DNA from: an uncultured bacterium
Lineage (GTDB): Bacteria; Krumholzibacteriota; Krumholzibacteriia; Krumholzibacteriales; Krumholzibacteriaceae
NCBI GenBank assembly: GCA_963747385.1
Contig: CAVVEY010000019.1
Coordinates: forward strand, 69,048-133,047
DNA length: 64,000 bases
Direction of reading: 5' to 3'
The notes under the pieces were generated by a model. That model worked only from the letters and a program-made list of their open reading frames with translations. It did no database searches and was not told where the DNA came from. The position numbers and the translations under genes are program-made. Shown here piece after piece: positions 18,105 through 47,888 of the stretch (position 1 is the stretch's first letter; the number at the start of each line of letters is the position of its first letter).

Positions 18105-18683
18105 CTAGGAGAGGTTCCTCAGCACCGACTTGGCGATCGCCTTGAGCGTGTCGAAGACCCCCGTGCCCTTCACCGCGACGGCCTCGAACGACGGGAAGTG
18201 CTTCGGGTTGAGCTCTTCCTCGAGGTCCTTGACGGCGATGACGTCGGGAAGATCGCGCTTGTTGTACTGGATCGCGTAGGGGACGTCCTCGAGCTTGATC
18301 TGGTATTCGCCGAGGTTCTCGTGCAGGTTGTAGAGGCTCTCGATGTTCGCGTCGTAGCGGCTCCGCTGCGAATCCGCCACGAAGATGATCCCGTCCACGC
18401 CGCGGAGGATGAGCTTCCGGCTCGCGTCGTAGTAGATCTGGCCGGGCACCGTATAGAGATGGAAGCGCGTCCTGAAGCCCTTCACCTTGCCGAGCTCGAG
18501 CGGCAGAAAGTCGAAGAACAGCGTGCGGTCCATCTCGGTCGCGAGCGTGATGAGCTTGCCCTTCGTCTCGGGCGTCACCTTGTCGTAGATGTATTGGATG
18601 TTCGTCGTTTTCCCGCACAGTCCGGGACCGTAGTAGACGATCTTGACGTTGATCTCGCGGGACGAATAGTTGATCAGAGACAA
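18105..18683 (-). CDS. mglA: Ras-like small GTPase MglA (motility/polarity regulator)
   Basis: VYYGPGLCGKTTN P-loop, size 192 aa, directly downstream of a Roadblock/LC7 gene. Confidence 0.85.
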   Translation of the reverse strand: MSLINYSSREINVKIVYYGPGLCGKTTNIQYIYDKVTPETKGKLITLATEMDRTLFFDFLPLELGKVKGFRTRFHLYTVPGQIYYDASRKLILRGVDGIIFVADSQRSRYDANIESLYNLHENLGEYQIKLEDVPYAIQYNKRDLPDVIAVKDLEEELNPKHFPSFEAVAVKGTGVFDTLKAIAKSVLRNLS

Positions 18684-18695
18684 CGGAAGCCTCCG

Positions 18696-19193
18696 TTAAT
18701 CGGTGAACAGACTGTCTATTTCCACTTCGGCCTGCTGCACGAACTCCTCGTTGAACTCGGTGTTCTCCTCGTTCTCGTACTCGAGCTTCCCGTAGAGGCG
18801 GCGGATCACCGTCGAGAGGTTGTCGAGCGCCTTCTTCGCGCGCAGGCGCACGAGGCCGAGCGTCGTCCGCTTGTCGAAGAGTATCACGAGGATGATGTTG
18901 CTCTCGACGCGGGCCAGATACATGCTCTCGTTCGATCCCTGATGATAGAGCGTGGAGAAATCCTTCTCGCCGATGAGAACGGCGAGCTGCGCGTTCGCCT
19001 CGAAATCGGCCGCGCAGAGCGAGGCGAAGCTGTGCAGGTCGAACTGCGGCGGGTCCCCGAGGCTCGAGATGAGCTGCCCCGTCTTATCGAGGAGGAGCAC
19101 GCTCGAGGAGTTCGAGTTCTTGAGGAGCTCCTGGAGGATCGTGTTGATCGCCCAGTAATCCTCTTCGAATACCTTGAAGTTTGTTCTGACCAT
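18696..19193 (-). CDS. mglB: Roadblock/LC7-domain protein MglB (GAP of MglA)
   Basis: 165-aa Roadblock-like protein immediately upstream of mglA, in the canonical mglBA arrangement. Confidence 0.75.
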   Translation of the reverse strand: MVRTNFKVFEEDYWAINTILQELLKNSNSSSVLLLDKTGQLISSLGDPPQFDLHSFASLCAADFEANAQLAVLIGEKDFSTLYHQGSNESMYLARVESNIILVILFDKRTTLGLVRLRAKKALDNLSTVIRRLYGKLEYENEENTEFNEEFVQQAEVEIDSLFTD

Positions 19194-19222
19194 GTGAGCA
19201 CTCGCTTTTTTTAAGACCTCTG

Positions 19223-19822
19223 TCAGATCTGCTCGCGCCCTTCAAGGGCCTTGGTGATCGTTCCCCGGTCCGCGAACTCGAGGGTGCTCCCGATCGGAAG
19301 GCCCCTCGCGGGCCGCGTCACCTTGACACCGTACTTCCTCAGAATATTCGCAATATAGAGCGACGTCGTATCCCCCTCGATGCTCGGGTTCGTCGCGACG
19401 ATTACCTCCTGAATACCTTCCTCCTGCACCCGGCTCACGAGACGCTCCAGATTCAGATCTTCCGGTCCCACGCCATCAAGGGGTGAAAGGACCCCGTGCA
19501 ATACGTGATAGCGGCCCCGATATTGGCCGGAGCCTTCGAGAATAAAAAGGTCGGCCGCCCGTTCAACGACGCATAGGATGGCGCCGGTGCGGCGTTCGTC
19601 CGTGCAGATGCCGCAGAGCTCGGTTTCCGCGAGATTTCCGCATTTCGTGCAATATCCGATTTTCTGCTTAACCTGCAAGAGCGTTTCGGCAAACTGCTGC
19701 ACCTCCCCGGCGTCCATATCGAGCACCGCAAAAGCCAGTCTTCGCGCCGTTTTTTCGCCCACTCCCGGCAGCTTCTTGAAATGATCGATCAGCGCCTGAA
19801 GGAGCGGTAGGCCGTAAATCAT
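19223..19822 (-). CDS. recR: Recombination protein RecR
   Basis: HhH at the N-terminus, C4 zinc finger (CTKCGNLAETELCGIC), Toprim domain. Confidence 0.9.
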   Translation of the reverse strand: MIYGLPLLQALIDHFKKLPGVGEKTARRLAFAVLDMDAGEVQQFAETLLQVKQKIGYCTKCGNLAETELCGICTDERRTGAILCVVERAADLFILEGSGQYRGRYHVLHGVLSPLDGVGPEDLNLERLVSRVQEEGIQEVIVATNPSIEGDTTSLYIANILRKYGVKVTRPARGLPIGSTLEFADRGTITKALEGREQI

Positions 19823-19917
19823 TCCCGCATCTCCTTTTTAGCAAAAACCTTGCCTGTAACTGGACACAGATAAAAAAGCTACCGGTTTGGGGAAAAAGAC
19901 GCCTGGCCGCCGGGGGA

Positions 19918-20229
19918 TCAGAAAAGCCCGGGAATGGGGAGGCCCCCGGTGAGCGAGCTCATCTCGTTGCGTATCATATCGTCTACGCGGGTGCGCGCTT
20001 CGCTGAGGGCGGCGACGACGAGGTCCTCGAGCATCTCCACATCCGCGGGATTTACGACTTCGGGGTCGATTTTCAGCGAAACGACCTCATGCTTGCCGTT
20101 CATGACCGCCTTTACCATGCCTCCGCCGGAAGAGGCTTCGACCGTTTTCTCGGCAAGGCGTGCCTGCATTTCAGCCAGTCGTTCCTGCATCTGCTGCGCC
20201 TGCTTGAGAAGCTTTCCCATGTCCTTCAT
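19918..20229 (-). CDS. ybaB: Nucleoid-associated protein YbaB/EbfC
   Basis: 103 aa, MGKLLKQAQQMQERLAEMQ... coiled-coil, and canonical position between dnaX and recR. Confidence 0.9.
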   Translation of the reverse strand: MKDMGKLLKQAQQMQERLAEMQARLAEKTVEASSGGGMVKAVMNGKHEVVSLKIDPEVVNPADVEMLEDLVVAALSEARTRVDDMIRNEMSSLTGGLPIPGLF

Positions 20230-20247
20230 TCCCCGATGCCTCCAGTT

Positions 20248-22074
20248 CTAGCCCTTTTCCTTGAAAAGTTCCCCGTCGAATTCCTCGATCAGGCGCTTGA
20301 TGACGGGGGCGTCCCCCGCGATCGCGTCGAGCGCCGGATCGGCCGCCCGGGCCTTCGGGGTCCTCGGCGCCTGTGTCTTCGGCGCCCGCGCGTCGGGCCC
20401 CTCGGCGGCGCTCTTCTGCCCCTCCGCGACCGATTCGAAATGCTCCGACGCCTGAATGACGACCTTCCTGCCGAAGAATTTCTCGGCGTGAAATTCGATG
20501 AAACGCCTGTTTTTCTCCTCATGCACCATCTCCCGGGCGAAACGGTTCTGGGGGCTGAAAGACAGGCTGAGAATGTTTTCCGAGAATCTCTCGACCCGGG
20601 CGGACATGAGCCAGATGCCGAGGGTGAGCTTGGTCTCCCGTATCTGCGAGAGAAAGCGCTCCCAGGCCTCTTTCCCGCCCAGCTCGCGAAGGACCTTGTC
20701 CTCCTCGGCCGTGCGCACGACCGGCGCCGCCGAGGGATCGAGACGCGCGAAGGCGCCTGAGGACGCCGGGGCGGCGTCCTTTTCGACGATCGCCGCGCGC
20801 GGCTGCTCCGCGGGCGCCGGGCGACGAGCCTCCGCCGCCTGCGTCGCGGGCGCCGCAGGCTCGAGACGCTGCGGCCGGGCCGGCGGTCCAGGATCGGCCT
20901 TTCGCTCCCGCGCGGGTCCGCCGGGAACGGCCGGTCCCCCCGATGAGTCGAGGCGCCGGATAAGCTCCGAGATCTCGACGGCCGATTCCCACGAGGCCGC
21001 TTCCATGAAAGCGGCTTCGAGCAGATAGCGCGGCTGGCCCGAGGCCTTGAGATCGCGATAGACCCTCGCGGCGGCGCGGAACAGGTAGAGCAGATCCTCC
21101 GTCCTGAACGCCTTTCCAAGCCCCGAGAATTCGGCGATCTCTCCCTGCGAGAGATCCAGGAAATCCGCGGCCTCGTTCCCCTCGACGCTCAGGACGAGGA
21201 GATTTCGAAGCCCCTCGACGTACGCGAGGAAGAACTCCTCGAGATCGAGACCCGAGTCGACCGCCCGATCGACGATCGCGAGCGTACCCTTCCGGTCGCG
21301 CTCCCCGATAGCCCTGAGAAGATCGATGACGAGCTGCGAATCGACGAGGCCGAGCACCCGGCGCACGAGAGCCAGATCGACCGAGCCCTCGCTCGCGGCG
21401 AGGCACTGATCGAGAAGGCTCTCCCCGTCGCGCATGCTCCCCTCGGCGCGCCGGGAAATCAGCGTGAGCGCCTCCCCCTCGAACGCGATCTTCTCGAGGG
21501 CGCAGATCTTCTCGAGCTGCGAGGAGATCTCCTTCAGCTCGAGCCTCTTGAAATTGAATCGCTGGCAGCGCGAGAGAATCGTCGTGGGAACCTTGTGCGG
21601 CTCGGTGGTCGCGAAGATGAGATAGACGTGGACGGGAGGCTCCTCGAGCGTCTTGAGGAGCGCGTTGAACGCCTGCGGCGTCAGCATGTGGACTTCGTCG
21701 ATGATGTATATCTTGGAGCGCCCCTGCGACGGCGCGTAGCTTATCTTCTCCCGCAGGTCGCGGATCTCGTCGATGCCGCGGTTTGAAGCGCCGTCGATCT
21801 CGATGACGTCGAGGTGGCGTCCCGCGGTGATCGCCTCGCAGGACGAACACGCGTTGCACGGCTCGGCTCCGTTGGGCTTTTCGCAGTTGATGATCTTGGC
21901 GAGGAGGCGCGCCGTCGTCGTCTTGCCGCATCCCCGCGGGCCCGAGAAGAGGTACGCGTGGGCGACCCTCTCCTTCTCGACGGCCTTCTTGAGCGTTTCG
22001 GTGATGTGCTCCTGGCCGACGACTTCCGAGAAGGTCTGCGGTCTCCACTTTCGCGCGAGAACGAGATAGGACAT
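20248..22074 (-). CDS. dnaX: DNA polymerase III subunits gamma/tau
   Basis: WRPQTFSEVVGQEHI, GPRGCGKTT Walker A, zinc module CNACSSCEAI, 608 aa. Confidence 0.95.
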   Translation of the reverse strand: MSYLVLARKWRPQTFSEVVGQEHITETLKKAVEKERVAHAYLFSGPRGCGKTTTARLLAKIINCEKPNGAEPCNACSSCEAITAGRHLDVIEIDGASNRGIDEIRDLREKISYAPSQGRSKIYIIDEVHMLTPQAFNALLKTLEEPPVHVYLIFATTEPHKVPTTILSRCQRFNFKRLELKEISSQLEKICALEKIAFEGEALTLISRRAEGSMRDGESLLDQCLAASEGSVDLALVRRVLGLVDSQLVIDLLRAIGERDRKGTLAIVDRAVDSGLDLEEFFLAYVEGLRNLLVLSVEGNEAADFLDLSQGEIAEFSGLGKAFRTEDLLYLFRAAARVYRDLKASGQPRYLLEAAFMEAASWESAVEISELIRRLDSSGGPAVPGGPARERKADPGPPARPQRLEPAAPATQAAEARRPAPAEQPRAAIVEKDAAPASSGAFARLDPSAAPVVRTAEEDKVLRELGGKEAWERFLSQIRETKLTLGIWLMSARVERFSENILSLSFSPQNRFAREMVHEEKNRRFIEFHAEKFFGRKVVIQASEHFESVAEGQKSAAEGPDARAPKTQAPRTPKARAADPALDAIAGDAPVIKRLIEEFDGELFKEKG

Positions 22075-22759: not shown

Positions 22760-23212
22760 CTATCCCGAGCGCACACCCTCGAAGAATTTCTGCAGAAGCG
22801 AAAGGCATTCCGCTTCCCGCACCCCTCCGGCAACTTCGATGCGGTGGTTGAAAAGCCCCGCCTCGTGAAAGTTGTCGATCGATCCGCAGGCGCCGCTCCG
22901 CGGCTGCTTCGCGCCGAATACGACGCGGCCCACGCGGGAAAGATAGAAGGCCCCCATGCACATATGGCACGGTTCGACGGTGACGTACACGGTGCAGCCG
23001 TCGAGGCGCCAATCGCCGAGAACCCGGGACGCGGCGTCGATCGCGACTATCTCGGCGTGCGCCGTTGCGCGCCCTCTCGCCTCGACCCTGTTGTATCCCC
23101 GGGCGACGACCCTATCGTCCCTCACGACGACGGCGCCGATGGGAACCTCGCTCTTCCGGAAGGCCTTCGAGGCCTCCGCGAGCGCCTCCCCCATCCACCG
23201 ATCGTCGTCCAT
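22760..23212 (-). CDS. tadA: tRNA-specific adenosine deaminase
   Basis: HAEIVAI and VEPCHMCMGA zinc-binding CDA motifs. 150 aa from Met at 23210-23212. Confidence 0.85.
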   Translation of the reverse strand: MDDDRWMGEALAEASKAFRKSEVPIGAVVVRDDRVVARGYNRVEARGRATAHAEIVAIDAASRVLGDWRLDGCTVYVTVEPCHMCMGAFYLSRVGRVVFGAKQPRSGACGSIDNFHEAGLFNHRIEVAGGVREAECLSLLQKFFEGVRSG

Positions 23213-23922
23213 TACCGCGTCGCGGCGCGGGGCGGAAGAGCGCCCACGATCGATTGGAGCACGAGCATCGCGACGTCGTCGAAAGGAGGCGCGCCATACT
23301 GGTCGCGTCCCGTTCCCGTGACGCCGCCGACCCGCCGGTCGACGCCATAGGTCGAAACGACGCTCCGGGCCTCGCTCCGCACCGCTTCTCTGTAATTCTC
23401 GTCGCTCGATTCCCAGACTATCTTGCCCGAGCTCATATCGATGAGCGTGAGCGTCGCGCCCACCTGCGTAACGGAGGAAGTGGCTTCCTCGCGATAATCG
23501 GCCTCGTCCTTGTGCCAGAGGTACACCAGGGGAACGAGGACCAACTCGATATTCAGCGAGAGCTTGAGCTCCCGCAGGAACTCCTTGTCGACCTCGTGCT
23601 TCGTCGCCCATAGATTCTTGAAGGCGGCGTAGCTCTCCCCGAGCTTCCCCCGCATGACGGCTCCCTGGAACTGCTCTGACGACACGAACTTATAGTCACC
23701 GCGCTCGCTCAGGAGCTCGGCGAGAGTCCTGTTCATGATGCGCTCGGCCTGCTGCTGGGGATCCTCTCCCTCGATGACGGAACTGATGAAGGGAGCGATG
23801 AGAATCCCGCTTACGGCGTTCGGGTCGAACGTCGGATCGCTCTTGATCGTCGAGGGATGCGGAGGCTTGCAGCCCGCGAGAAGGACGAGCATAACCGCCG
23901 AAAAGACCATGAGTTTCTTCAT
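23212..23922 (-). CDS. Hypothetical lipoprotein
   Basis: MKKLMVFSAVMLVLLAGC lipobox. The stop overlaps the tadA start by 1 nt. Confidence 0.5.
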   Translation of the reverse strand: MKKLMVFSAVMLVLLAGCKPPHPSTIKSDPTFDPNAVSGILIAPFISSVIEGEDPQQQAERIMNRTLAELLSERGDYKFVSSEQFQGAVMRGKLGESYAAFKNLWATKHEVDKEFLRELKLSLNIELVLVPLVYLWHKDEADYREEATSSVTQVGATLTLIDMSSGKIVWESSDENYREAVRSEARSVVSTYGVDRRVGGVTGTGRDQYGAPPFDDVAMLVLQSIVGALPPRAATR

Positions 23923-24026
23923 ATCGCCATTCCTTGATATACGCCCGCGGATACCCGCATAACCATTGGGGGCATGAGAAGATATAATCATGCGACCCCC
24001 GCGTTGTCAATATTGAAAGGGATAGG

Positions 24027-24074
24027 GGGACTCCCCGATCGCAGGATCGAAGGCCCGCGCGATCGGGGAGTCCC
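24027..24074 (-). terminator. 16-bp perfect inverted repeat (gggactccccgatcgc / gcgatcggggagtccc), putative terminator of the pilin operon
   Basis: Located 38 nt downstream of the PilX stop. On the minus strand it is followed by CCUAUCCCUUUCAAUAUU. Confidence 0.5.
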
Positions 24075-24111: not shown

Positions 24112-25464
24112 CTACCAGACGTTGAGCGAGATATCGGTCGAGGGGTCGACCTCGGTCCAGGCGACCTTCTCGACCTGGCCCGTCGTCGGGAAGGCCGGCG
24201 GCGGGTTGTCCATCAGCCGGGAGTCGTACGAGTAGGCCTTCTCGTATCCGGTCACGATCGCCCCGGTCGAGCTGTTGAACGTGCCGACCGCGCCTCTCTT
24301 CTTCTGGATGATGCCCCCATAGACGATGAGCTTGCCTCTCGGGGAACCCGAGTTGTAGTTCTGGACCGTCCATGAGGTGTTGAGCGCCATGATGGCCGCC
24401 ATGACCGTCTCGTCCGCCGTGTCGAGATTGGCGGTCGAGTTCCACATGATGACGTTCAAGTCGGAGACGAGACCGAGGAGATCGCTCGAGGTCGGATCGG
24501 TCCTCGGATCGGTGTTGTAAACGAGATTATCCATGATCCTGATGTCCCCGTTGGACCCGACGGTCACCTGTCCCTTGATCTTCCCTTCCACCTGCGCGGT
24601 GCCCTGCACGTAGATGACGCCGTTCGAGGGATACGCCATCGTGTTGTAGGCGCCGCCGTTGATCGATACCGAGAGCGACCGGTTGCCGCCGGCGTCCACG
24701 AGGAACTTGATATAGACGGGATTCCCGGTGAGCTTGAGGCCCCCCGACTCGTTGGCCTTGTTGAGAATCATCGACGTGTTCGTCGGAAGCGGTATGCGCG
24801 ACGCGTTGAGCGTGAGCCCGCCGAGGAATTGCGGGTTGTCGCTCGGCGGCCCGCCGTTGTAGTAATCGATCGTCGCCGCGTTGCTCGAGGCCTCTTCGTG
24901 GAATTTCGGGCTTCCGTAGATGTGCATCTGGTCGTTCGTGTGCAGGGGCCCGAAGAACTCGTCCTTCGTGACGAACCAGATCGTCGATCCTCCCGCGTCC
25001 TTCTCCATGTCCGAGAAATACGCGTATCTGGCGAAATTCTGCTGACCCACTTTAACCTGGAGGCACTTCGTCATTCCGCTCCCGTTAAGGGTGGCCCGCA
25101 CCGTCACCGCGACGAACCGGGTGGGATTGCCCGTATTGGAGTCGAGCGGATCGAGGTACGTGGTTACCGTTCCCTCGTTGTAGAGCGATACGTTGTCGTA
25201 AAGCAGAAACGGCCCGTTCAGCATGGTGCCTGTGCCGCGAAAAGGGATCGCGAGCTGCGACAGGTAGTTTATGCTCTTCTCCGCTCCCGCCTCGGCGAGA
25301 TAGAAGGCCCGCTTGTCGAGCATCTCGTTGGTGGCGATCTGGGTCTCGTTGACCGAGATCGAGCTCACCCCCATGACGATCGCCGTCAAGGCCATGAGGA
25401 TCAGAATGACGATGACGAGCGCCGTCCCGTTCTCGTTCGATTGTCTCATGCGTGCGTGATTCAT
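24112..25464 (-). CDS. pilX: Type IV pilus assembly protein PilX-like (PilX_N-type N-terminal helix)
   Basis: N-terminus NGTALVIVILILMALTAIVMGVSSISVNETQIATN is the PilX N-terminal signature. Last gene of a minor pilin operon. Confidence 0.65.
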   Translation of the reverse strand: MNHARMRQSNENGTALVIVILILMALTAIVMGVSSISVNETQIATNEMLDKRAFYLAEAGAEKSINYLSQLAIPFRGTGTMLNGPFLLYDNVSLYNEGTVTTYLDPLDSNTGNPTRFVAVTVRATLNGSGMTKCLQVKVGQQNFARYAYFSDMEKDAGGSTIWFVTKDEFFGPLHTNDQMHIYGSPKFHEEASSNAATIDYYNGGPPSDNPQFLGGLTLNASRIPLPTNTSMILNKANESGGLKLTGNPVYIKFLVDAGGNRSLSVSINGGAYNTMAYPSNGVIYVQGTAQVEGKIKGQVTVGSNGDIRIMDNLVYNTDPRTDPTSSDLLGLVSDLNVIMWNSTANLDTADETVMAAIMALNTSWTVQNYNSGSPRGKLIVYGGIIQKKRGAVGTFNSSTGAIVTGYEKAYSYDSRLMDNPPPAFPTTGQVEKVAWTEVDPSTDISLNVW

Positions 25465-25488
25465 CTCGCTTCACCTTTCTGTCCCCGG

Positions 25489-28400
25489 CTACGGGGTGAC
25501 CGGTCTCTCCCTGACGACGAAATCGTCGATATTCCAGCCTGCGTAGGGCCGCTGCCCGTCGGACTTCAGTCTGAAACGGACCACGACGTTGTCATCCTGA
25601 TCGGCCCATTGAGATATGTCGAGCTGCACGAAGACCCAGGCGTTGTCCGTGATCGCGGACGGGTTCTGCCAGACCACGTTCCACGGTCCGGCGGTGCCGT
25701 TATTGCTCACTTCCACATATGCCTGATCGTATGCCGGGCCCTCGACGTTGAGCCACCGGTAGAACTGGATCACCACGTTCGAGTGTCCCCAGCAGTCGAG
25801 CACCGGCGTCCTGAGCGTGTTCTCCACGTTGTTCACATAGCGCCCGTTCGAGGTCCCCGCCCCGAGATCGTTGCCGTACACGTTCGTGCCGCCGTGCGCG
25901 GCGCCCGGATCGCTGTTGCCGTAGGTCTGCGATTTGACGTACGGCAGCCCCCTCTGCCAGTCGTTCTCGGTTCGGACCCTTGCGCTGACCCAGCTCTTGT
26001 TCGTCTCGAAATCGTCCTCGAAGACGATGTACGAGCTCGGGTTCTGCGAAATCGAATACACGGGGCCCGCGATGTTGGAGTTGACCGACTCCTTCGTGCC
26101 GTCGCTCGCCCGCACCACGTAGTAGTAGCCGACGCCGTCCAGGGGCGGGTCGCTGCTGAAGGTCCGGTCGTCGTAGAAGACGTAGCTCAAGGCGCCGGTC
26201 GCCGACTTCGTACCCACGAACGTGCCGAATCCGCCCTGCGCGCTCGTCTCGCGATAGATCCTGTAGATGATAACGTTGCTCGTGCAGTGGCCGTCGTCCG
26301 CGGAACGGTCGAACGTCACGGTGATGCTTCTCCCCGCGTCCAACGGAGTGTCCTCCACGCCGGTGATCCGCGGCGCGCCCGGCTCGCCGTCCGACATCGT
26401 GTAGCCCTGGTTCGAAGGCGCCGATTCCCGGCTGTTCGCCCGGTCGCCCGCCGTCGCGAAGTAGTAATAGAATTCTCCGATGACCGGCGGCGAAGAGGGA
26501 TTCGACGCGGGCCCGTCCACGAAGGCATACGTTTCCTTTTTGCCGGCCTCGACCTCTGCCACGGCGGAAGGATCGAGCAATTCTCCCATCCGGTAGACGG
26601 TATAATGCGAGACGCCGCCCCCCGTGACGTCCTGCGGCGATCGTTCCCACGTGACGCTCACCGCGCCCGTCGCGTCGCAGAGAATGTCGTTCGCCTGGAG
26701 GTTTTCCGGAGGATCGATCAGCGTGTTCCTCAGCGGTATGCCGGTTTCTTCGTTCGAGGGAACCGAGGCGTCGATGGTGTGCGTCCAGACGCAGTACGTA
26801 TAGCTGAGGCCTCGCGACAGACCGTCGTCGACGATCGAGTAGGTCGGCGAATCGGTCGCCGGCACGGTCCTCACCGTCGCGAAATTCAGATCGCTTGTCG
26901 ACTTTCTCTTCACTTCATACTCGACGACCGGATTCGGGAAACAGGTCTCGGAGGGGGATCTCTTCCACGTCACGGTCAGGGCCGTGCCCTCGTCGTCGGG
27001 GAAATCCACGACCTGCGTGATCTGGCACGCGGATATGCTTCCCGAAAAATAGACCGCGCCGTACTCGTTCGAATCGATCGACGGTATGCTGTCGGTCGAA
27101 ACGGCCCGGGCGACGTAATAGTAGTAGCTCCCCGGGGTCGGAGGAGTCAGCGCGACGTTGTTCGTGGAATTGTCGCGAAAGGTGTAATAGTTGGAGCCGT
27201 CCGCCGTGATCTTGCCGATGTACGCCTTCGAGAGAATGCCTCCGCCTTTCGTCGATCCGCGGTATACGTTGTACTTCTGGACGGTGCCGCCGGAGGACAG
27301 ATCGTCCGGCGACTTGCGGACGACGACCGAAATCTCGTTGATCGCGTCGCAGGGCGTGTCGAAGGCGCTCTCGATGACCGGCGGCTGGGGACCGTTCGGC
27401 AGAGCGCGCAGCGGGCCGACCATGTTCGACGGATTCGATTCCTGGGGCCTGCAATCCCAGGCGGTCGCCATGTAATAGTAGGGCGTGTCGATCACGGGCC
27501 CTCCGCCCGGCGTATGGCTATCGTCGTTGATCGTGTACGTGGCGGCGGCGGTCGGGGTGACCGAGTTGATGCAGGTCCACTCGATCTGGCCTTCCTCCCG
27601 GCGGTACACGGTGTAATTGTCGATGTCCTTCTCTCCGGCCGTTTCGTCGGCCGATTTCGAGAACGTGAGCGTGATGCTCTCGCCCGCGTCACGCGGCGTA
27701 TCGACGCCGCTCAGGCCGGTCGGCGAATCGGGAGGATCGCCGCAGGCGTGCAGATTGACGCTCCCCGTTCCCACGTTCCTCGGCCGGATCTTGCTCGTCA
27801 TCACGATGGACCGGTATTTCCGTTCGGTGCCGCTCGTGCTGTGCGGGCCGACGTAGCTCGCTTCCATGTTGGGGGATTCGGCCTCGATGCCCACCGCCAC
27901 CTCGATGATCTTGCTCAGCAGGTTCTGGGGAACGCGGGTCAACGCCGCGATCTCCGCCTGGCTCAAGGAGCCGTCGCTGTTCGCGTCTCCCCAGAGCCGG
28001 ATCGTGCCGTTGCTGAGGAAATCGCCGTAATACTTGAACAGCGGCTCGGGCAGCTGGCCGTCCGGATAGTTCTCTCTCCCGCGAAGGCCGTACGCGATCA
28101 TGTCGATACGCGCGCCGTTTTCCTCGCGCATGAGCGCGTAATCGGACGGATTCTGCGTCTCCGTGTAGCGATCGGACGAGTTCACGATCCCGTTCGCGTC
28201 GCGGTCGAAGGTGTAGCGGATCGTCTCGGCGCCGTTGTTGTACCGGTCGCGGGTCCCGATGTTCTCGCCCGGATAGTCGCCCGGCGAGTAGAACGCGCCG
28301 CTGCTGAGAGGAACGGACTGGCTCACGCTCATCGAGGGAACGCCGAAGGGACCGCTCGAAGCGTCCGCGTTGAATATCACCTGATACGGAGCGGCGTCGA

Positions 28401-28644
28401 CGAATATCGGCTGGTTGTCGAAATCGTCGATGTTCGTTCCCGCGAGACGCAGATCCCTCGTGAGCGTTTCGAGCGAAACGCTCGCGTTCTGCTGCGCGCT
28501 CACGATCTGGTTCTGCGCTTCCCCCGCCTTTTTCTGCGAGGTGAGCACGTTGTAGGAAATCATGATGAGGAGCGCGCTGACGGTGAGCGCGATCATCATC
28601 TCGAGCAACGAAAATCCGCGGTTACTGTTCGACCGGTTGTTCAT
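25489..28644 (-). CDS. Giant (1051 aa) prepilin-type protein: class III signal (G|FSLLEMMIALTVSALL) + Fn3-like repeats + C-terminal jelly-roll (LamG/MAM-like) domain; putative pilus-tip adhesin occupying the PilW/PilY1 position
   Basis: N-terminal prepilin cleavage/methylation motif. Recurrent ~90-aa segments carry Y-x-V-Y-R motifs (YTVYRREEG, YNVYRGSTKGG, YEVKRKSTSD, YTVYRMGE, IYRIYRETSAQGG). C-terminal W/aromatic-rich beta-sandwich-like region. Confidence 0.6.
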   Translation of the reverse strand: MNNRSNSNRGFSLLEMMIALTVSALLIMISYNVLTSQKKAGEAQNQIVSAQQNASVSLETLTRDLRLAGTNIDDFDNQPIFVDAAPYQVIFNADASSGPFGVPSMSVSQSVPLSSGAFYSPGDYPGENIGTRDRYNNGAETIRYTFDRDANGIVNSSDRYTETQNPSDYALMREENGARIDMIAYGLRGRENYPDGQLPEPLFKYYGDFLSNGTIRLWGDANSDGSLSQAEIAALTRVPQNLLSKIIEVAVGIEAESPNMEASYVGPHSTSGTERKYRSIVMTSKIRPRNVGTGSVNLHACGDPPDSPTGLSGVDTPRDAGESITLTFSKSADETAGEKDIDNYTVYRREEGQIEWTCINSVTPTAAATYTINDDSHTPGGGPVIDTPYYYMATAWDCRPQESNPSNMVGPLRALPNGPQPPVIESAFDTPCDAINEISVVVRKSPDDLSSGGTVQKYNVYRGSTKGGGILSKAYIGKITADGSNYYTFRDNSTNNVALTPPTPGSYYYYVARAVSTDSIPSIDSNEYGAVYFSGSISACQITQVVDFPDDEGTALTVTWKRSPSETCFPNPVVEYEVKRKSTSDLNFATVRTVPATDSPTYSIVDDGLSRGLSYTYCVWTHTIDASVPSNEETGIPLRNTLIDPPENLQANDILCDATGAVSVTWERSPQDVTGGGVSHYTVYRMGELLDPSAVAEVEAGKKETYAFVDGPASNPSSPPVIGEFYYYFATAGDRANSRESAPSNQGYTMSDGEPGAPRITGVEDTPLDAGRSITVTFDRSADDGHCTSNVIIYRIYRETSAQGGFGTFVGTKSATGALSYVFYDDRTFSSDPPLDGVGYYYVVRASDGTKESVNSNIAGPVYSISQNPSSYIVFEDDFETNKSWVSARVRTENDWQRGLPYVKSQTYGNSDPGAAHGGTNVYGNDLGAGTSNGRYVNNVENTLRTPVLDCWGHSNVVIQFYRWLNVEGPAYDQAYVEVSNNGTAGPWNVVWQNPSAITDNAWVFVQLDISQWADQDDNVVVRFRLKSDGQRPYAGWNIDDFVVRERPVTP

Positions 28645-28660
28645 GATCCATCACTCCGCA

Positions 28661-29098
28661 TTAAAGCTTGATATCCTTGAACCTGCTGATGCTCGAACGT
28701 ATCTGTGCGTTCCGGGCCGTGCCGTTGTCTCGCCATTCTACACGGACGGTCACTTCCTTCATGACGCTCGTGCCGAGAGCGTCCACGGAGTCGGCGATCG
28801 CCACCGCCCTCCGGAAAAAGGAGTAATCGGGCTTTCCGCCTTCGATGGTGCCGTAGTCCTCGGTGGGAAACGAAGCCGCCGTGATGGCGTCGTAGCGCAT
28901 GCTGCTCAGAATCTGCTCCATCCGCTGATTGGCCAGATTGGTGGCGACGACGACGTGCTTCGACCGCGTATTGGAATGCATCGCCTGGAACATGACGCGC
29001 GTGAGGCTCAGGACTCCCACGGCGAAGATGGTCATGGCGACGAGAATCTCCACGAGGGACATCCCCGCATCGCTTCCAAAAAGCCTCTTCATCCGCAT
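28661..29098 (-). CDS. pilV: Type IV minor pilin PilV-like
   Basis: Leader MRMKRLFGSDAG|MSLVEILVAMTIFAVGVLS. 145 aa. Confidence 0.7.
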   Translation of the reverse strand: MRMKRLFGSDAGMSLVEILVAMTIFAVGVLSLTRVMFQAMHSNTRSKHVVVATNLANQRMEQILSSMRYDAITAASFPTEDYGTIEGGKPDYSFFRRAVAIADSVDALGTSVMKEVTVRVEWRDNGTARNAQIRSSISRFKDIKL

Positions 29099-29123
29099 AA
29101 CGACCTCCGCTCGAATTTCGATA

Positions 29124-29714
29124 TCAGTTGTAAGACGGCCGCGCGAGAATGACCGTTCCGGTCGAGCGCCGCACGGCGAGCATCTGCTCCGAGCCCTTCT
29201 TCTGCGCCCGGAAATCCGCGTTCGACATGACGAAGATCAAACCTTCCTCGTTCGTGCTGCCGTTCGGGTAGAAAATCACGCGCGGAGGGGTCCCCGAAAA
29301 CGTGACGGGGCTCGTAACGTACGTGCCGTCCAGCCCGAGCGATCCGCCGATCAGCCCGAACACCTGTCCCGCGGGCAGCTCGTAGGGCCCATAGACCCTC
29401 TCGCCGTTGTCGGCCCTGTTGTTTCCCCGATTGGTCGGAACGAAGCCGGCGTCGGCGGGATTGCCTCCGCCCCCTCCGTCATCGTCCAGAATCGTTATCG
29501 TCGAAGCGGTGAGACTGAAATAGGCGATATAGTTGTTTCTCTCGTGGATGGCCCTGCCTCGGGCCTGCCGCAATATGCTCGCGACGAGCTGGGCGGTGTC
29601 CTTGGACTGGAAGTGACGCATGTACCTCATCACCGGCGGCGTTCCGACCGCGAGAACGAGGCCGATTATCGTCACCGCGACCATCAATTCGACAAGCGTG
29701 AATCCCTTTTTCAT
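29124..29714 (-). CDS. GspH/FimT/FimU-family minor pseudopilin
   Basis: MKKGFTLVELMVAVTIIGLVLAVG prepilin N-terminus (Met at 29714). Size ~196 aa. First gene of the operon. Confidence 0.65.
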   Translation of the reverse strand: MKKGFTLVELMVAVTIIGLVLAVGTPPVMRYMRHFQSKDTAQLVASILRQARGRAIHERNNYIAYFSLTASTITILDDDGGGGGNPADAGFVPTNRGNNRADNGERVYGPYELPAGQVFGLIGGSLGLDGTYVTSPVTFSGTPPRVIFYPNGSTNEEGLIFVMSNADFRAQKKGSEQMLAVRRSTGTVILARPSYN

Positions 29715-30027
29715 CGTTCCTCTTCCCTGCTCAAGCCATGGGAGCTTCGCAGCGCTTTTATTCCACAATCTCTGGACGCGAAAGACGTACCACTTGCAGG
29801 ACTTTCTTCAACGGCTTTGTTTTTCAATTGATTGGGGCTGTGCGGCCCCGAGAGAAGGGAGTCGCCGGCGTGTCAAATTGCACGTAATCGTCGCAGAATG
29901 GAAATACAGAGAGGGCGGCATCTGACTGTAGTTAAAGAAGTTATACCGACCAACGAGGCAGGACAAGGAACCGGCGCGCACTCCGTTCAATCATGAGGAA
30001 GAATCGTCGTATGACGGAGGGCGCGTT

Positions 30028-41278: not shown

Positions 41279-42493
41279 TCAGCGTGTCGTTTTGCGCCTC
41301 GACCAGGTCTCCGAGGCGCTCAGGCCGACCGCCATTCTGAACACCCGCTCGTCCACGCCGTTCGCGCCGATCGACCCGATCTGCCCGATCTCGAAGGAGA
41401 GGTCCATTTTTCCCGGACCTCCGGGAAGATCGAAGCCGGACCCGAACGTGACGAAGCGCGATTTCACGGGATTCCCGGCGGGATACTCGAGATGCCAGCG
41501 ATTTTCGTAGAACCCGAGCCGCAGGGGAATTCTCGTGAAGAAGCTCCCCTCCCGGCCGGGGCGTTTCTCGACGCCGAACGCCACGAGACTCTCGTCCCCT
41601 ATCGAGCCGGCGAGCTGCTCGTAGCCCCGAGTTTCCGGGGCGCTCCGGGTCCAGAAATGGGCGCTCAGCCAATAGCGCTCCGTAATTCCGAACGCGGCGC
41701 CCGCCTCCCACGAGGAGGGGAGCTCGAATCGCCATGCCGCGATCGAGTCGAATTCGGCCCGGCTGTACGCGAACGTCTCGTCCCCCTCGTACGCGACGCC
41801 GCTTTTCCATCCGAGACCGAGGGAGAGCCGGGGATGGACGTTCAGGAGCGCGGATCCGGACCAGGAGCTTCCGGAGAAGCTCCTCACGCGTTTCGATTCG
41901 ACCGACGAGTAATAGTCTTTCTTGTACTCCACCCCGTAGGAATCCTCGATGGAGCCGCGCTCGACATGATAGGCGCCCGCGACGCGCGCCCACGATACGG
42001 GCCTCCAGGCGAGGGTAAGAGGCACGTTGAAGAGACCGCTTCGATGGCGGTACACCTCGTATGCCGTCGCCGAGCTCTCGATCGGATATGCGAAGGAAAA
42101 ATCTCCCTTCCCCGCGAACTCCGTTCGATAGCCGAATCCGAGGACGAGACCCTTCCGCAGCGGCACGCCGAACATGACGGACGGAAGCTGGAACCGGCTC
42201 TCGTACGCGGCTTCGCTCCCGCTCCGGACGTTCGAGACGCTCAGGATCTCGACGAGGGAAAACGTCAGCCGGGTAAGGTCGGCCATCGAGGCCGGATTCG
42301 CCGAGACGGCGCCGGCGGAATCGATCACGGCGTACGAGGAAAGCCCGAGGCTCCGGTAGCGCGCGCTCCCGGTGAAAGCGTGCTCGCCGAGATAATTGAT
42401 GCCGAAGACCGATTGGGCGAGCGCCGGATCGAGCGCCCCGGAAGCGAGAACCAGCGCCGTCGCGAGCGCGGCGGCAAGAGTTCTATTTCTCAT
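41279..42493 (-). CDS. Hypothetical outer-membrane beta-barrel-like protein (signal peptide)
   Basis: Signal peptide MRNRTLAAALATALVLASGALDPALAQ, and many amphipathic beta-strand-like segments (LVLGFGYRTEF, RLSLGLGWKSGVAYEG, IPLRLGFYENRW). Confidence 0.4.
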   Translation of the reverse strand: MRNRTLAAALATALVLASGALDPALAQSVFGINYLGEHAFTGSARYRSLGLSSYAVIDSAGAVSANPASMADLTRLTFSLVEILSVSNVRSGSEAAYESRFQLPSVMFGVPLRKGLVLGFGYRTEFAGKGDFSFAYPIESSATAYEVYRHRSGLFNVPLTLAWRPVSWARVAGAYHVERGSIEDSYGVEYKKDYYSSVESKRVRSFSGSSWSGSALLNVHPRLSLGLGWKSGVAYEGDETFAYSRAEFDSIAAWRFELPSSWEAGAAFGITERYWLSAHFWTRSAPETRGYEQLAGSIGDESLVAFGVEKRPGREGSFFTRIPLRLGFYENRWHLEYPAGNPVKSRFVTFGSGFDLPGGPGKMDLSFEIGQIGSIGANGVDERVFRMAVGLSASETWSRRKTTR

Positions 42494-43674
42494 CGCGCGC
42501 CTCCGAAATCGGCGGGAAGCGAATAGAATATCTCCAGGTACGGGGCGTCAGCGCCTCCCGGCGATACGAAGGAGACCCTCTGGATGCGGCTCGATTCCAG
42601 ATTCGACTGCAGCACCAGCCCCGTGTTCTCGCGGGCTCCCCTGAGGAGATCGCCCATGTAGCCCCTGAGAGGCAGCTTGAGCGTTTTCGAGACCGTCGGG
42701 TCGAGCGAGTTCTGGTCGACGCCCGTGCCCTTGCGGAAATCCGACGAGAGAGTATCGGCCGAATCGGGCGCGTAGAGATAGTAGCTGAAAATGGAAGTAT
42801 AGCCGATCACGAGCTGCTCGCCGGTCGCTCCGCCGAATCCCTTGTCTCCCCGCACCTTGAGCACGAGGAAGGCGGCGTTCACCATCGCGCGTTCGGGGAT
42901 GCCGGCCGGGTCGAAGCCGAACGAGACGCGCCGGGCGAGGCCTCCGACGCAGTTGAGCCCCGGCTCCTCGAATACCGCGACCGAATAGTCTGCGTTCGAG
43001 GGGAATGTGGCGGACGTGCCGTCGGTGAACGTCACGCGCACGGCGGGAGGATCGCTGCCGTACTCGCGCGACTTTATCTCGAGCGAGGTCGTCGTGTCGG
43101 GGACCGCCGCCCAGACGATCGCGATCCCGTTGTGCTCCCGCGTCCCCGAGAGCCACCCGTTGACCACGGCGGTATCGATACCGAACTCCGTTCTTTCGAT
43201 GCCGAGCGTATCGACCGTCACGCCGAGGGAATCGGGGATCGGATCCGGGTCGTACGGCGGCACCGCGGTGATGCTCGACGAGTCTTCGAAGCTCGAGAGA
43301 AGCTCGTGGAAGGTCGCTGGAAGCACGAAATCCTCAGGCGTCGACACCTGTATGGGGAGGTGGAGCCGGGCCGACGAGACGGTCTTGCCGGCGTCATCGG
43401 CGTCGAGCGTAAAATCGAACTTGATGAGCACGGCGCGGTACTCGATCCCCTGCAGCCTGCCGAGGATCAGAAGCCGCCCCGTTCCGACTCCCTCCGGGAC
43501 GGAGACCGTGACCGCGCTCACCGGAACGACCACCCGGTGAATGTCTCCCCCCTTGACCCCGTAGGTGCCGTCGTCGACGAATTTTTGGGACACCGGTCCC
43601 TCGGGATCCGAGCTGCACGACAGCGCGAACGCGAGAAACACGGCGACGATCCAGTATCTTGATTTCAATTTCAT
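42490..43674 (-). CDS. Hypothetical lipoprotein
   Basis: MKLKSRYWIVAVFLAFALSCSS lipobox (Met ~43674). Confidence 0.45.
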   Translation of the reverse strand: MKLKSRYWIVAVFLAFALSCSSDPEGPVSQKFVDDGTYGVKGGDIHRVVVPVSAVTVSVPEGVGTGRLLILGRLQGIEYRAVLIKFDFTLDADDAGKTVSSARLHLPIQVSTPEDFVLPATFHELLSSFEDSSSITAVPPYDPDPIPDSLGVTVDTLGIERTEFGIDTAVVNGWLSGTREHNGIAIVWAAVPDTTTSLEIKSREYGSDPPAVRVTFTDGTSATFPSNADYSVAVFEEPGLNCVGGLARRVSFGFDPAGIPERAMVNAAFLVLKVRGDKGFGGATGEQLVIGYTSIFSYYLYAPDSADTLSSDFRKGTGVDQNSLDPTVSKTLKLPLRGYMGDLLRGARENTGLVLQSNLESSRIQRVSFVSPGGADAPYLEIFYSLPADFGGAR

Positions 43675-43943
43675 ATCCTCAATGTAACGTCGAAAGAAAC
43701 GCGCACCAAGAAATATCATACATCCCGAGAGGGCGTCAAGGCGAATGGCTGCCCCGGACGATCCCCCGGCACGCTCACCGGTCCGCGCAGAGGGACCGCT
43801 CCATTTCGGCCGCAGGACGCCCGGCTTCTGCGCGAGCGGCCCGAGGCGCGTGGCGGAAGAGCGGGCGAGGGAGAATGGACGATTCCTCCGCTCTTCTGGA
43901 GTATAGACACGGCGGAACCGATATGGTAGAATGAACGGGTAAC

Positions 43944-45842: not shown

Positions 45843-47888
45843 ATGATGCGATCTCCTGAATCGACGAGAATGAATGCGATGACCGTGACGCTGCTGGTTG
45901 TATTCCTCGTCTGCTCGTTGGCCCTGATAGTCGAGCTTCCCGTTTTCATGCGGGTCATACTGGGGGTGCCGCTCGTATTCTATCTGCCCGGGCTCACCTT
46001 GATGATGGCGTTCAATCTCCGCGAAGGCTCCCGGGAGGATCACGTATTCCAGCCTCTCCTCCTGTCGCCGATCGCGATGTCGTTCGCGATGCTGGCGCTC
46101 TTCGCGATAACCGGTTCTATTCTTCTTTCGCTCAAGTATTCCGTCCTGCTGTTTCTGCTTCTCTTCATCGTTCTGGCACTCGGGCGGAAAGGGTATGCAT
46201 TCGGCCGGGGCGAAGAAATCCCCAGGGAGATCTATCTCGTGGCGGTCATGTTCTGCATGCTCATGCTTGCTTCATTTCTCGCCAACCCTCATTTATTCGT
46301 TCGATCCGATTCGTATTATCACGTGTCGGTGATAAACGAGATTATGGCGCGAGGCATACCGCCGATGGATCCTCGCCTGCCCGATATACCGATCAAATAT
46401 TACTGGATGTATCATTTCTTTCTGTCCGGCTGGAAGGAACTGACGGGCCTGTCGATTTTCTGGATTCTGTTCTCGTTCATGTTGGTCAACGCGTTCTCGT
46501 TCCCGTACCTCGTCGCTCGATTCACGCGCGTCTTTACCGATGACCGCGCGAAGTTGATTTGTACGCCTGTATTCGCGATCGCCGGGCTCGGCGCAGCATC
46601 GTGGATCTTGTGGCCCGTCGTACTTCTGCGGCTTCCGTTCGGCGACGTAACGGGCGCCGAGGAGTGGAAGAGAATCCTCGGCGAGGTTCACTTCAATTCT
46701 CATCAAGTGATCTACACCTTGACGCCGAAAGGGACACAGCCGACGAGTGTGCTCGACAAGTTCTATACCCTGACGACCTACACCTATTCGATAAGCCTGT
46801 TTCTTCTGTGCACTATTTCCGTCATCGGTTCCGCCCTTGAAAAAGCGCGGAGGGCGAGGTACATACCATTCCTGGTTCTGCTTTTCGTCGGTAATTTCCT
46901 CTTTCAGATATTGACCGGTACGGCGCTGATACTGATGGCCGTCGGCTCGGGACTGTTGCTCGCCGCGCTTTCCCTGAGAAACAGGAAGGCTCCCCCCGTG
47001 TTCGCCACGCTCGTCCTCCCCGGGGTGGCGATCGTGTCGGCGCTCCTTGTCCTGCCTTATGTGCGATCGCTCGGCAGCACCGGAGAAGGAAGCGCCGTGC
47101 GGCAGTTCACGCATTTCGGAAAGACGAATGTCTTTTCCATCATGGCGCCTCTCATCGCGCTGTTTCCATTTTCCGTGCGGGCGATCAGAAAGCTCGTCAC
47201 GACGAACGACGAAAGATGGCGGATGCTCTCGGCGTGGATCGCGGCGCTGTTCGTCGTGGCCATTTTCTTCGATGCGGGAGGAACGGCGGAGATCAAGCTG
47301 GTCTTCTTTCTGTTCCTCTTGCTGCTTCCTTTGATCGCGTGGGAATTGATCGATAGCCTTCGCCGGTCAAGCGGAATGAGGCTGTTTCTGCTGTCGGCGT
47401 GGATCTTCATCCTGTTCGTCGTTCCGACGGCGCTCACAGTGAGAGGATTCCTGATGGACGGCCCTCTAACCAAGGACCAGGAGCACGAGTACGTTCTGAA
47501 TCAGGCCGACCGGGAGCTCGTCGAATGGGTACGGGAGAACACCGGCAGGGACGCCGTCATGATTGAAAATAAAGTCTACAGCATCATGCCGACGTACGCC
47601 GGGAGAAGGGATTTCTATTCGGTTCAGGCGGCGACGGAAACGTTCGGGTATGACGACAGCACGACCGCGCGGTACAAGGAGATCTATCACAACGTGTTTT
47701 CGGCGGAGCCGACGCGAAAAGAGGACGTCGAGTATCTCCGCGGCCGCGGATTCGATCTGTTCGTGGTGGTCTGGGACATCGACAGGGAGAGAAGCCCGGA
47801 AATAGCCGCGAAGTTCGATTCGTCTCCGGAACTGTTCGAGAAGCTGTATCAGGGCGCGGCAGGCACGATCTACCGCTTCAATAAATAA
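45843..47888 (+). CDS. Large polytopic membrane protein with C-terminal soluble domain (putative GT-C-fold glycosyltransferase; paralog of 51531..54085)
   Basis: 681 aa with at least 12 predicted TM helices followed by a ~170-aa soluble C-domain. Immediately downstream of a DPM1-like GT2. Confidence 0.4.
   Translation: MMRSPESTRMNAMTVTLLVVFLVCSLALIVELPVFMRVILGVPLVFYLPGLTLMMAFNLREGSREDHVFQPLLLSPIAMSFAMLALFAITGSILLSLKYSVLLFLLLFIVLALGRKGYAFGRGEEIPREIYLVAVMFCMLMLASFLANPHLFVRSDSYYHVSVINEIMARGIPPMDPRLPDIPIKYYWMYHFFLSGWKELTGLSIFWILFSFMLVNAFSFPYLVARFTRVFTDDRAKLICTPVFAIAGLGAASWILWPVVLLRLPFGDVTGAEEWKRILGEVHFNSHQVIYTLTPKGTQPTSVLDKFYTLTTYTYSISLFLLCTISVIGSALEKARRARYIPFLVLLFVGNFLFQILTGTALILMAVGSGLLLAALSLRNRKAPPVFATLVLPGVAIVSALLVLPYVRSLGSTGEGSAVRQFTHFGKTNVFSIMAPLIALFPFSVRAIRKLVTTNDERWRMLSAWIAALFVVAIFFDAGGTAEIKLVFFLFLLLLPLIAWELIDSLRRSSGMRLFLLSAWIFILFVVPTALTVRGFLMDGPLTKDQEHEYVLNQADRELVEWVRENTGRDAVMIENKVYSIMPTYAGRRDFYSVQAATETFGYDDSTTARYKEIYHNVFSAEPTRKEDVEYLRGRGFDLFVVVWDIDRERSPEIAAKFDSSPELFEKLYQGAAGTIYRFNK

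Follow-up and report, generated by a model that had tools for sequence, protein, structure and literature searches.

The 64,000-nucleotide window analysed here, positions 69,048 to 133,047 of contig CAVVEY010000019.1 from an uncultured bacterium of the Krumholzibacteriota, carries on its minus strand, from 29714 to 24112, a tight operon of four minor-pilin genes (g1 to g4), which open reading frame (ORF) listing and translation delimit with gaps of only 16-25 bp. These genes are g1 (29124..29714), encoding a 196-aa GspH/FimT(FimU)-like minor pilin assigned as the H subunit; g2 (28661..29098), encoding a 145-aa PilV/GspI-like minor pilin assigned as the I subunit; g3 (25489..28644), encoding a 1051-aa modular minor pilin of the PilW class, the J subunit, with a stalk of five fibronectin type III (Fn3) domains and a MAM-like end domain; and g4 (24112..25464), encoding a 450-aa minor pilin with PilX_N and DUF4900, assigned as a ComZ-like K subunit. 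All of the elements that a first-pass annotation of this DNA had described for a four-gene minor-pilin operon are present on the minus strand. The start of g1, which had been set at an upstream TTG at 29768, is better placed at the ATG at 29714, which has a ribosome-binding site and is preceded by GGAAGAGGA.

The N-terminus of g3, MNNRSNSNRG/FSLLEMMIALTVSALLIMISY (also written MNNRSNSNRG/FSLLEMMIALTVSALL, with the slash following the glycine), is a class III signal, consisting of a short basic leader, Gly, about 20 hydrophobic residues and Glu at +5 (G/FSLLEMMIAL). It matches N_methyl (PF07963) with 29.1 bits (cutoff 21.2) and TIGR02532 with 26.6 bits (cutoff 16.3). In an alignment of g3 with 47 full-length homologs of 38-89% identity, G10, F11 and E15 are invariant and G/F(S/T)(L/M)xE is found in every aligned homolog, so that the prepilin signal proposed in the first-pass annotation proved to be conserved in the orthologs. 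An AlphaFold2 (AF2) model of g3, with a predicted local distance difference test score (pLDDT) of 85.5, is numbered one below the true residue number (the first row of the underlying alignment, A1, lacks Met1) and shows a helix at model residues 12-64 (true 13-65), a beta-rich head extending to about 292, then five beta-sandwiches (300-866) set off by a hinge of low confidence (293-299), and, after a second, short hinge (867-869), a last beta-sandwich (870-1050). In true numbering, residues 1-65 (28450..28644) hold the leader and the alpha1 helix of the mature pilin, and residues 66-293 (27766..28449) form a beta-rich head modelled mostly at pLDDT 84-95; an alpha1 helix of about 53 residues followed by a beta head is a type IV pilin fold.

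The head can be linked to the PilW family only through intermediate sequences. A direct family scan of g3 gave no match to PilW (PF16074) or T2SSJ (PF11612) at E<=0.1, and the matches to GspJ (TIGR01711, E 0.001) and to the PpdB-type PRK10557 (E 2.9e-6) covered the N-terminus only and lay far below the cutoffs. A profile of the head retrieved from PDB sequences only the alpha1 helix of major pilins, plus a weak calbindin match described below, and hhalign comparison with GspJ, GspH and GspK of Escherichia coli K-12 aligned 18-30 N-terminal residues or nothing, and so gave no means of telling class J from class H. When searched against 1.84 billion cluster representatives, the head profile matched 981 clusters at E<=1e-10, and a profile built from distant heads retrieves many pilins of 195-350 aa that contain PF16074 and are named PilW by the Joint Genome Institute (JGI) or NCBI. 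Alignment of the head profile (A2) with P0356, a 317-aa 'PilW family protein' containing PF16074, gave a probability of 99.0% and E 3.1e-18 over 243 columns in hhalign, and alignment with P0353 gave E 4.8e-16 over the first 69 columns. The similarity to P0356 is strongest in the long alpha1 helix (SQ.r...q...QQNARvA.d...R..AG) and the last strand (YR...t..v..RN.G) and weak in the middle; a 2160-aa relative is also named 'PilW family protein' by NCBI. Because the head is homologous to PilW-family pilins, g3 is, as judged from these relationships, the PilW/J subunit itself with a C-terminal graft of about 750 residues and no foreign slot-filler. The first-pass annotation had the protein filling a PilW/PilY1 slot, and its PilW position stands, but the idea that it merely occupies that slot does not, the head itself being PilW-homologous.

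Within this head are two loops of 12 residues that resemble EF-hands and fit their pattern (D-x-[DN]-x-[DN]-G-x-[ILV]-x-x-x-[ED]), residues 147-158 (DRDANGIVNSSD; 28171..28206) and 220-231 (DANSDGSLSQAE; 27952..27987), the second of them canonically. D147, G152 and D158 of the first loop are invariant in the orthologs, as are W218, G219, D220, G225 and E231 in and just before the second, which are conserved in the wider family too. Among 95 heads taken from other lineages, about 80-86% retain the D/N/D/G/hydrophobic/D pattern of the loops. The calbindin EF-hand match (E 0.24) falls at positions 222-253 of the head profile. In the literature searched, no report was found on PilW heads bearing EF-hands; calcium sites are known in PilY1. 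Speculatively, the two loops may bind calcium and thereby stabilise or regulate a tip complex, as calcium does for PilY1.

Beyond the head, a low-confidence hinge (residues 294-300) leads into five tandem Fn3 domains (residues 301-416, 417-536, 537-641, 642-753 and 754-867; 26044..27744 in all), each of 105-120 aa and sharing 25-35% pairwise identity. The repeats carry the motifs YTVYR, YNVYR, YEVKR, YTVYR and YRIYR (Y-x-V/I-Y/K-R), together with YYY...A and SN. The stalk is modelled as beta-sandwiches, and Foldseek comparison with the PDB matched it to Fn3 arrays (titin, LAR, fibronectin and gp130) with E values down to 1e-22; Pfam fn3 (PF00041) matches 15 of the 47 g3 orthologs. The model and the Foldseek matches thus bear out the earlier claim of at least five Fn3-like repeats with Y-x-V/I-Y-R signatures, although the repeats are 105-120 aa long and not about 90.

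The last domain of g3, residues 871-1051 (25492..26034), is a jelly roll of the MAM-like/choice-of-anchor J type that ends in GWNIDDF, which we take to resemble the C-terminal IDD motif of MAM domains. Among isolated end domains of orthologs, 17 of 18 match the NCBIfam choice-of-anchor J model (NF038128; best 1.9e-12), and InhA-like_MAM (PF20773) matches 16 of the 47 orthologs. InhA is the sole PDB sequence match of the end domain, whose likenesses also include reelin and carbohydrate-binding modules, and P0059, an M28 peptidase, is 46% identical to it. A jelly roll that looks LamG/MAM-like had been predicted for the C-terminal ~200 aa; for the ~180 aa of the domain the fold and the MAM type hold, and the LamG label was dropped in favour of MAM/choice-of-anchor J on the hidden Markov model (HMM) matches. 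In public annotation, orthologs of g3 appear as 'prepilin-type N-terminal cleavage/methylation domain-containing', 'choice-of-anchor J domain-containing' or 'fibronectin type III domain-containing' proteins.

The model, the Foldseek matches and the HMM searches together confirm that a pilin anchor is joined in one chain to a stalk of Fn3 domains and a terminal jelly roll, and with its pilin module, five Fn3 domains and MAM-like domain g3 is a modular pilin as defined by Raynaud et al. 2021 (PMC8179133). A fusion of PilW to PilY1 was considered and ruled out, since HMM searches found no PilY1 beta-propeller (PF05567/IPR008707) in g3 or its 47 orthologs and the g3 model contains none; the claim that g3 is no ordinary fusion of this kind therefore stands. 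The companion claim, that no separate PilY1 gene is present, also survived, as no PilY1-like protein is encoded in the window or adjoins the cassette in about 35 related loci.

The other three proteins fit the remaining core minor-pilin classes. The signal of g1 is MKKG/FTLVE (N_methyl 32.1 bits), and its relation to GspH is weak in g1 itself (E 0.029, with TIGR01708 GspH matching the N-terminus); its counterparts in related cassettes match GspH (PF12019). The g2 protein (G/MSLVE) matches PilV (TIGR02523) at E 4.1e-11 and GspI at E 3e-7. In all complete loci these two are the first and second genes. Glu5 is present in g1-g3 and missing in g4 (G13/TALVI), which passes the Pfam thresholds for both PilX_N (29.3, cutoff 25.5) and DUF4900 (41.7, cutoff 29.4). 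The AF2 model of g4 (pLDDT 87.7, predicted template modelling score (pTM) 0.78) has a pilin fold followed by a beta-solenoid, so that g4 combines a class III-like signal without Glu5 with a pilin fold and a large extra domain, as in tip pilins of the GspK/PilX/ComZ type. Its identity to ComZ is 13%, and tapirins and ice-binding proteins are also among its matches. The description of g4 as PilX-like accordingly holds for the PilX_N match but needs correction: at 450 aa, this protein is a modular pilin that bears a beta-solenoid resembling that of ComZ. Because g4 is itself modular, the tip would bear two effector modules. Taken by sequence class, the four genes have an H-I-J-K core minor-pilin layout in which g3 takes the J (PilW) position and the K subunit, g4, is modular.

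A scan of species-representative genomes located 28 Krumholzibacteriota-type loci, a few of them labelled Latescibacterota or just 'bacterium', and four Acidobacteriota loci; the taxon names of relatives are throughout the labels of their sources. Wherever a locus in these Krumholzibacteriota-type genomes, about 28 in number, is complete, the order g1-g2-g3-g4 is kept, also when the flanking genes are not the same. Flanking genes are the same in a relative with 60% identity (L001) and different in one with 38% identity (L003); the persistence of the cassette in L003 indicates that the four genes are the conserved unit. Among the g3 orthologs all domains are similarly conserved and none is hypervariable. 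At the same time, three lineages encode a shorter g3 of 638-653 aa, with the head and three Fn3 domains and no MAM domain (L028 698-2614, L030 659-2578 and L035 5992-7953), still followed by g4, showing that stalk length and end domain vary naturally. Outside the phylum, the third gene of the cassette encodes a head-only protein of 302 aa in L007 (order GspH, small pilin, head, PilX_N), a 1083-aa protein with the head and FG-GAP/SdrD_B in L006, and a head plus Fn3 protein of about 1040 aa in the Acidobacteriota cassettes. One Acidobacteriota cassette (L039 7674-10538) has a g4-like ORF of 954 aa, called from the first start codon and overlapping the end of the preceding gene; if this ORF is real, the K subunit can apparently be greatly enlarged as well.

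More distant relatives of the head are often giants. Of the best 147 matches to the head, 95 span 200 or more of its positions; 72 of these 95 proteins are at least 700 aa long and 21 at least 1200 aa, up to 2192 aa, with 11 shorter than 350 aa. The stalks sampled on these relatives include SdrD_B, Big_1/Invasin_D3, Big_2 and FG-GAP domains. Within the set P0182-P0328, examples are P0226 (2160 aa), P0244 (2192 aa) and P0232 (1704 aa), Big_1/Invasin_D3 stalks occur in P0213 and P0217, and SdrD_B stalks occur in P0190 and P0200. Giant pilins with a head of the g3 type come from Thermodesulfobacteriota, Nitrospirota, Acidobacteriota and unnamed metagenomic lineages. The rarity implied by the first-pass annotation was therefore overstated: modular pilins are widespread, Fn3 is a common graft and this head is joined to long stalks of other kinds across many lineages.

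The operon most likely ends after g4, as judged from a perfect 16-bp inverted repeat on the minus strand (24027..24074), predicted to form a hairpin 38 nt after the g4 stop (-40 kcal/mol for a 66-nt folded segment), and from a promoter-like site beyond it (TTGACA-17 nt-TTATAT, 24010..23982) that precedes the following gene. The hairpin was not listed by a consensus terminator scan because it lacks a T run, and a sigma-70 promoter scan upstream of g1 found none. Directly downstream of g4 on the minus strand, at 23212-23922, lies a gene for a predicted lipoprotein of about 236 aa (MKKLMVFSAVMLVLLAGC) without a Pfam match, which is found at the same place in many Krumholzibacteriota loci and is absent from distant cassettes. 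We considered this gene as a fifth member of the operon and regard that as unlikely, given the strong hairpin before it, its own TTGACA-17-TTATAT site and its absence from distant cassettes; it is probably a separate transcription unit. The operon resembles its surroundings in G+C content. A plus-strand ORF of 1280 codons (24829..28671), which overlaps g3 and g4 in antisense, does not pass the filter for third-position G+C that g1-g4 pass. It is best regarded as a shadow ORF cast by G+C-rich coding DNA and not as a gene.

Further along the minus strand, 18105-22074 holds dnaX, a small ORF, recR, mglB (Roadblock/LC7) and mglA (small GTPase), with mglB and mglA at 19193..18105. The dnaX-recR-mglBA arrangement recurs in L001, with a YbaB gene between dnaX and recR, and is not found beside the L003 cassette. 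The first-pass annotation had taken mglBA as support for pilus-dependent motility or adhesion; the genes are indeed nearby, but with dnaX and recR intervening and the neighbourhood not kept in L003, the functional link is weak. On the other side of the operon, at 30028-34387 on the minus strand, is a 2-oxoacid:ferredoxin oxidoreductase cluster (gamma, alpha and beta subunits), with a 559-aa GltD/NfnB-like flavoprotein (Fer4_20 + Pyr_redox_2 + Fer4) between the gamma and alpha genes, as also in L001. A polysaccharide-biosynthesis region contains ORFs of 404, 409 and 681 aa without Pfam matches (41279-43719 and 45843-47888), adjoining genes for a Polysacc_synt_2 dehydratase, a GT2 glycosyltransferase, a B12-radical SAM enzyme and a flippase. 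Genes in the window for an outer-membrane protein of the FadL type and an exporter of the Wza type show the organism to be a diderm.

We propose, with a probability of about 0.72, that g3 is a modular PilW displayed at the tip of a type IV filament; it would probably act there as an adhesin, and confidence in any particular ligand is much lower. Most likely, g1-g4 are the four core minor pilins (H/I/J/K, or FimU/T, PilV, PilW and PilX) of a type IV filament, and of a type IVa pilus (T4aP) in particular. In described systems the H-I-J-K complex is staggered, initiates assembly, caps type IV filaments and presents effectors, with the K subunit, lacking Glu5, on top (PMC8179133; PMC9934059), and a further source places minor pilins together with PilY1 at the tip, where they prime T4aP assembly (PMC8833165). 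PilY1 is what the complex presents in model diderms. In Streptococcus sanguinis the effectors are modular pilins with bulky modules that fit only at the tip and act as tip adhesins (PMC8179133; PMC9934059). By analogy, all four proteins would be processed by a prepilin peptidase and would assemble through their alpha1 helices in the inner membrane into a complex that primes pilus assembly and ends at the tip, with g4, lacking Glu5, as the top subunit and the pilin module of g3 (about 295 aa) as an anchor in the complex. The flexible hinge would let the five-Fn3 rod project beyond the tip. An Fn3 domain is about 3.5-4 nm long, so that the rod would measure about 18-20 nm if extended. The MAM-like domain would be held beyond the tip and may bind a glycan or protein ligand, and g4 would supply a second module, its ComZ-like or tapirin-like beta-solenoid. 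The effector role of PilY1 in model diderms would thereby be carried by the pilins themselves.

Several observations weigh against this proposal. Neither the 64-kb window nor the DNA flanking about 35 related loci contains a gene for a prepilin peptidase or a major pilin, or any pilB, pilT, pilC, pilM or pilQ; tblastn with PilB, PilT, PilC, PilM and PilQ from L004 had no match in the window and 36 loci, and a motif scan of the window for pilin signals returned only three pilins of the operon. The g3 protein itself passes the Pfam threshold for N_methyl only and not for fn3, MAM or PilW, and its own end domain scores 25.8 bits with choice_anchor_J, below the cutoff of 30; since direct Pfam and NCBIfam scans gave, besides N_methyl, sub-threshold matches, the domain calls rest on orthologs, profiles and the model. 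The pTM of the g3 model is 0.36, and thus domain orientation and stalk length are not predicted by it, a low value that is expected for a beads-on-a-string architecture. The three lineages with a short g3 indicate that the MAM domain is not indispensable. As for the filament type, a cluster of type IV pilus (T4P) genes in L004, from another phylum, encodes PilB, PilT, PilC, four small pilins, two DUF4900 proteins and PilM-Q, the tandem DUF4900 PilX-like genes (443 and 445 aa; L004 8001-10782) lying between the four small pilins and pilMNOPQ. A JGI contig with a DUF4900 relative of g4 encodes PilM-Q, a prepilin peptidase and a 947-aa pilin with N_methyl, fn3 and a jelly roll. The presence of g4 relatives inside full T4P clusters indirectly favours a T4aP as the system served by the cassette. 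The literature searched yielded nothing relevant on pili in Krumholzibacteriota.

The cassette might instead belong to a type II secretion system (T2SS) or another non-pilus type IV filament, in which case g3 would be a GspJ-type pseudopilin and no surface adhesin, its stalk working inside the periplasm or at the secretin, for instance as a plug or to capture substrates. We consider this unlikely, since g2 scores better with PilV than with GspI, g4 has PilX_N, the g3 head is homologous to PilW-family proteins while E. coli GspJ aligns over the helix only, and the relatives of g4 cluster with PilT and PilMNOPQ and not with GspC/L/M. In addition, the genes for T2SS minor pseudopilins are as a rule part of a gsp operon, as in L005, and a rod of about 20 nm with a binding domain would seem ill suited to a short periplasmic pseudopilus.

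A competence pilus for DNA uptake as in Thermus thermophilus, with the ComZ-like g4 as receptor and the g3 stalk accessory or unrelated, is likewise improbable: the identity to ComZ is just 13%, beta-solenoids also serve as adhesins, with tapirins and ice-binding proteins among the matches of g4, and the rec and cinA genes are housekeeping genes whose synteny is lost in L003. DNA uptake also offers no reason for the conserved module of five Fn3 domains and MAM. Competence and adhesion are compatible, however, and neither would preclude the other. The absence of machinery genes nearby would agree with a third explanation, that g3 is never polymerised and is a surface or periplasm-spanning Fn3/MAM protein whose class III signal does no more than anchor it in the inner membrane or direct its export, as would the common occurrence of choice-of-anchor J/MAM domains in secreted proteins with other sorting signals, such as P0059. 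That explanation appears very improbable given that Gly-1 and Glu5 are invariant, that the PilW-type head is conserved over 38-89% identity, that g3 lies strictly between I-like and K-like pilins in every locus and that L007 has a head-only homolog at the same position.

As a tip-displayed modular PilW, g3 would join a described class. An InterPro survey from 2021 counted more than 1,200 modular pilins with 264 architectures, placed Fn3 (IPR003961) among the 15 commonest grafts on pilins, gave as its most extreme case a protein of 860 residues with 12 repeats and considered the class probably under-counted (PMC8179133). Thus, g3 belongs to the modular pilins and is not a new kind of system. 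Compared with the modular pilins highlighted in that survey, it is larger and has other cargo, it lies in a canonical diderm H-I-J-K operon in which J and K are both modular, and it has no adjacent PilY1. The closest parallels in design are PilB (von Willebrand factor A, vWA) and PilC (lectin) of S. sanguinis, whose N-terminal pilin module, short loop and non-pilin binding modules follow one another (PMC8179133; PMC9934059) and which are predicted to fit only at the tip with a Glu5-less partner, an adhesin thus standing in place of PilY1. In contrast to these monoderm proteins of about 50 kDa, with a small pilin module and one or two grafted modules, the present system is from a diderm and has the H-I-J-K operon, a full-size PilW-class head with two EF-hand-like loops, a six-domain graft (about 750 aa) and a modular K subunit.

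In gene order and subunit classes the cassette is similar to FimU-PilV-PilW-PilX plus PilY1 of the T4aP of Pseudomonas aeruginosa and Myxococcus xanthus, sharing with them the PilW-homologous head of g3, the PilV-like g2 and the PilX_N of g4, and the role expected of it, assembly priming and effector presentation, is that ascribed to their tip complex in PMC8833165. It differs from these systems in that no PilY1 beta-propeller is adjacent in any locus, a large, probably adhesive part is covalently fused to PilW, the EF-hand-like loops are in the pilin head and not in PilY1, and there is no PilE-like fifth pilin. The likeness of g4 to T. thermophilus ComZ (PDB 6qvi) is one of predicted fold only, at 13% identity and with g4 classed as PilX_N/DUF4900. 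ComZ is not known to be accompanied by a giant PilW. Unlike the GspH-GspI-GspJ-GspK set of the T2SS (PDB 3ci0), the cassette lies outside a gsp operon, E. coli GspJ aligns with the head over the N-terminal helix only, and the stalk and binding domain of g3 have no T2SS counterpart. CofB and TcpB also combine a pilin module, a flexible linker, and beta-repeat and beta-sandwich domains with a proposed tip location (summarised in PMC8179133), but they are type IVb, single minor pilins, trimeric and about 500 aa long, and they are unrelated in sequence, with no match in the searches made with g3. The tapirins of Caldicellulosiruptor compare with g4 and not g3, and only distantly (NF051896, 17.7 against a cutoff of 600).

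A broader reading, which we offer tentatively and which is doubtful in its full extent, is that throughout a diderm phylum the core minor pilins have taken over the function of PilY1 (tip adhesion and possibly calcium-controlled pilus dynamics), in the form of a PilW with a conserved pair of EF-hand-like loops, an Fn3 rod of about 20 nm and a MAM-like domain, whose partner is a PilX with a beta-solenoid like that of ComZ. On this reading, the head would mark out a large and so far undescribed family of giant pilins of the tip, of 700-2200 aa with interchangeable stalks (SdrD_B, Big_1/invasin, FG-GAP and Fn3) in Krumholzibacteriota, Acidobacteriota, Nitrospirota, Thermodesulfobacteriota and others.

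These results extend a known principle and overturn nothing. They provide a phylum-wide example suggesting that diderms with a canonical H-I-J-K set can graft effector modules onto J and K instead of using PilY1, linking the modular-pilin paradigm of monoderms to the tip-complex paradigm of diderms. For the Krumholzibacteriota, which are known from metagenomes only, pilus-mediated attachment to a glycan or protein ligand is predicted. The wider family of giant PilW-headed proteins is the most interesting lead. Hundreds of giant pilins with exchangeable stalks are recognisable by the PilW-type head and its two EF-hand-like loops, which could be used to search uncultured phyla for adhesins of pilus tips.

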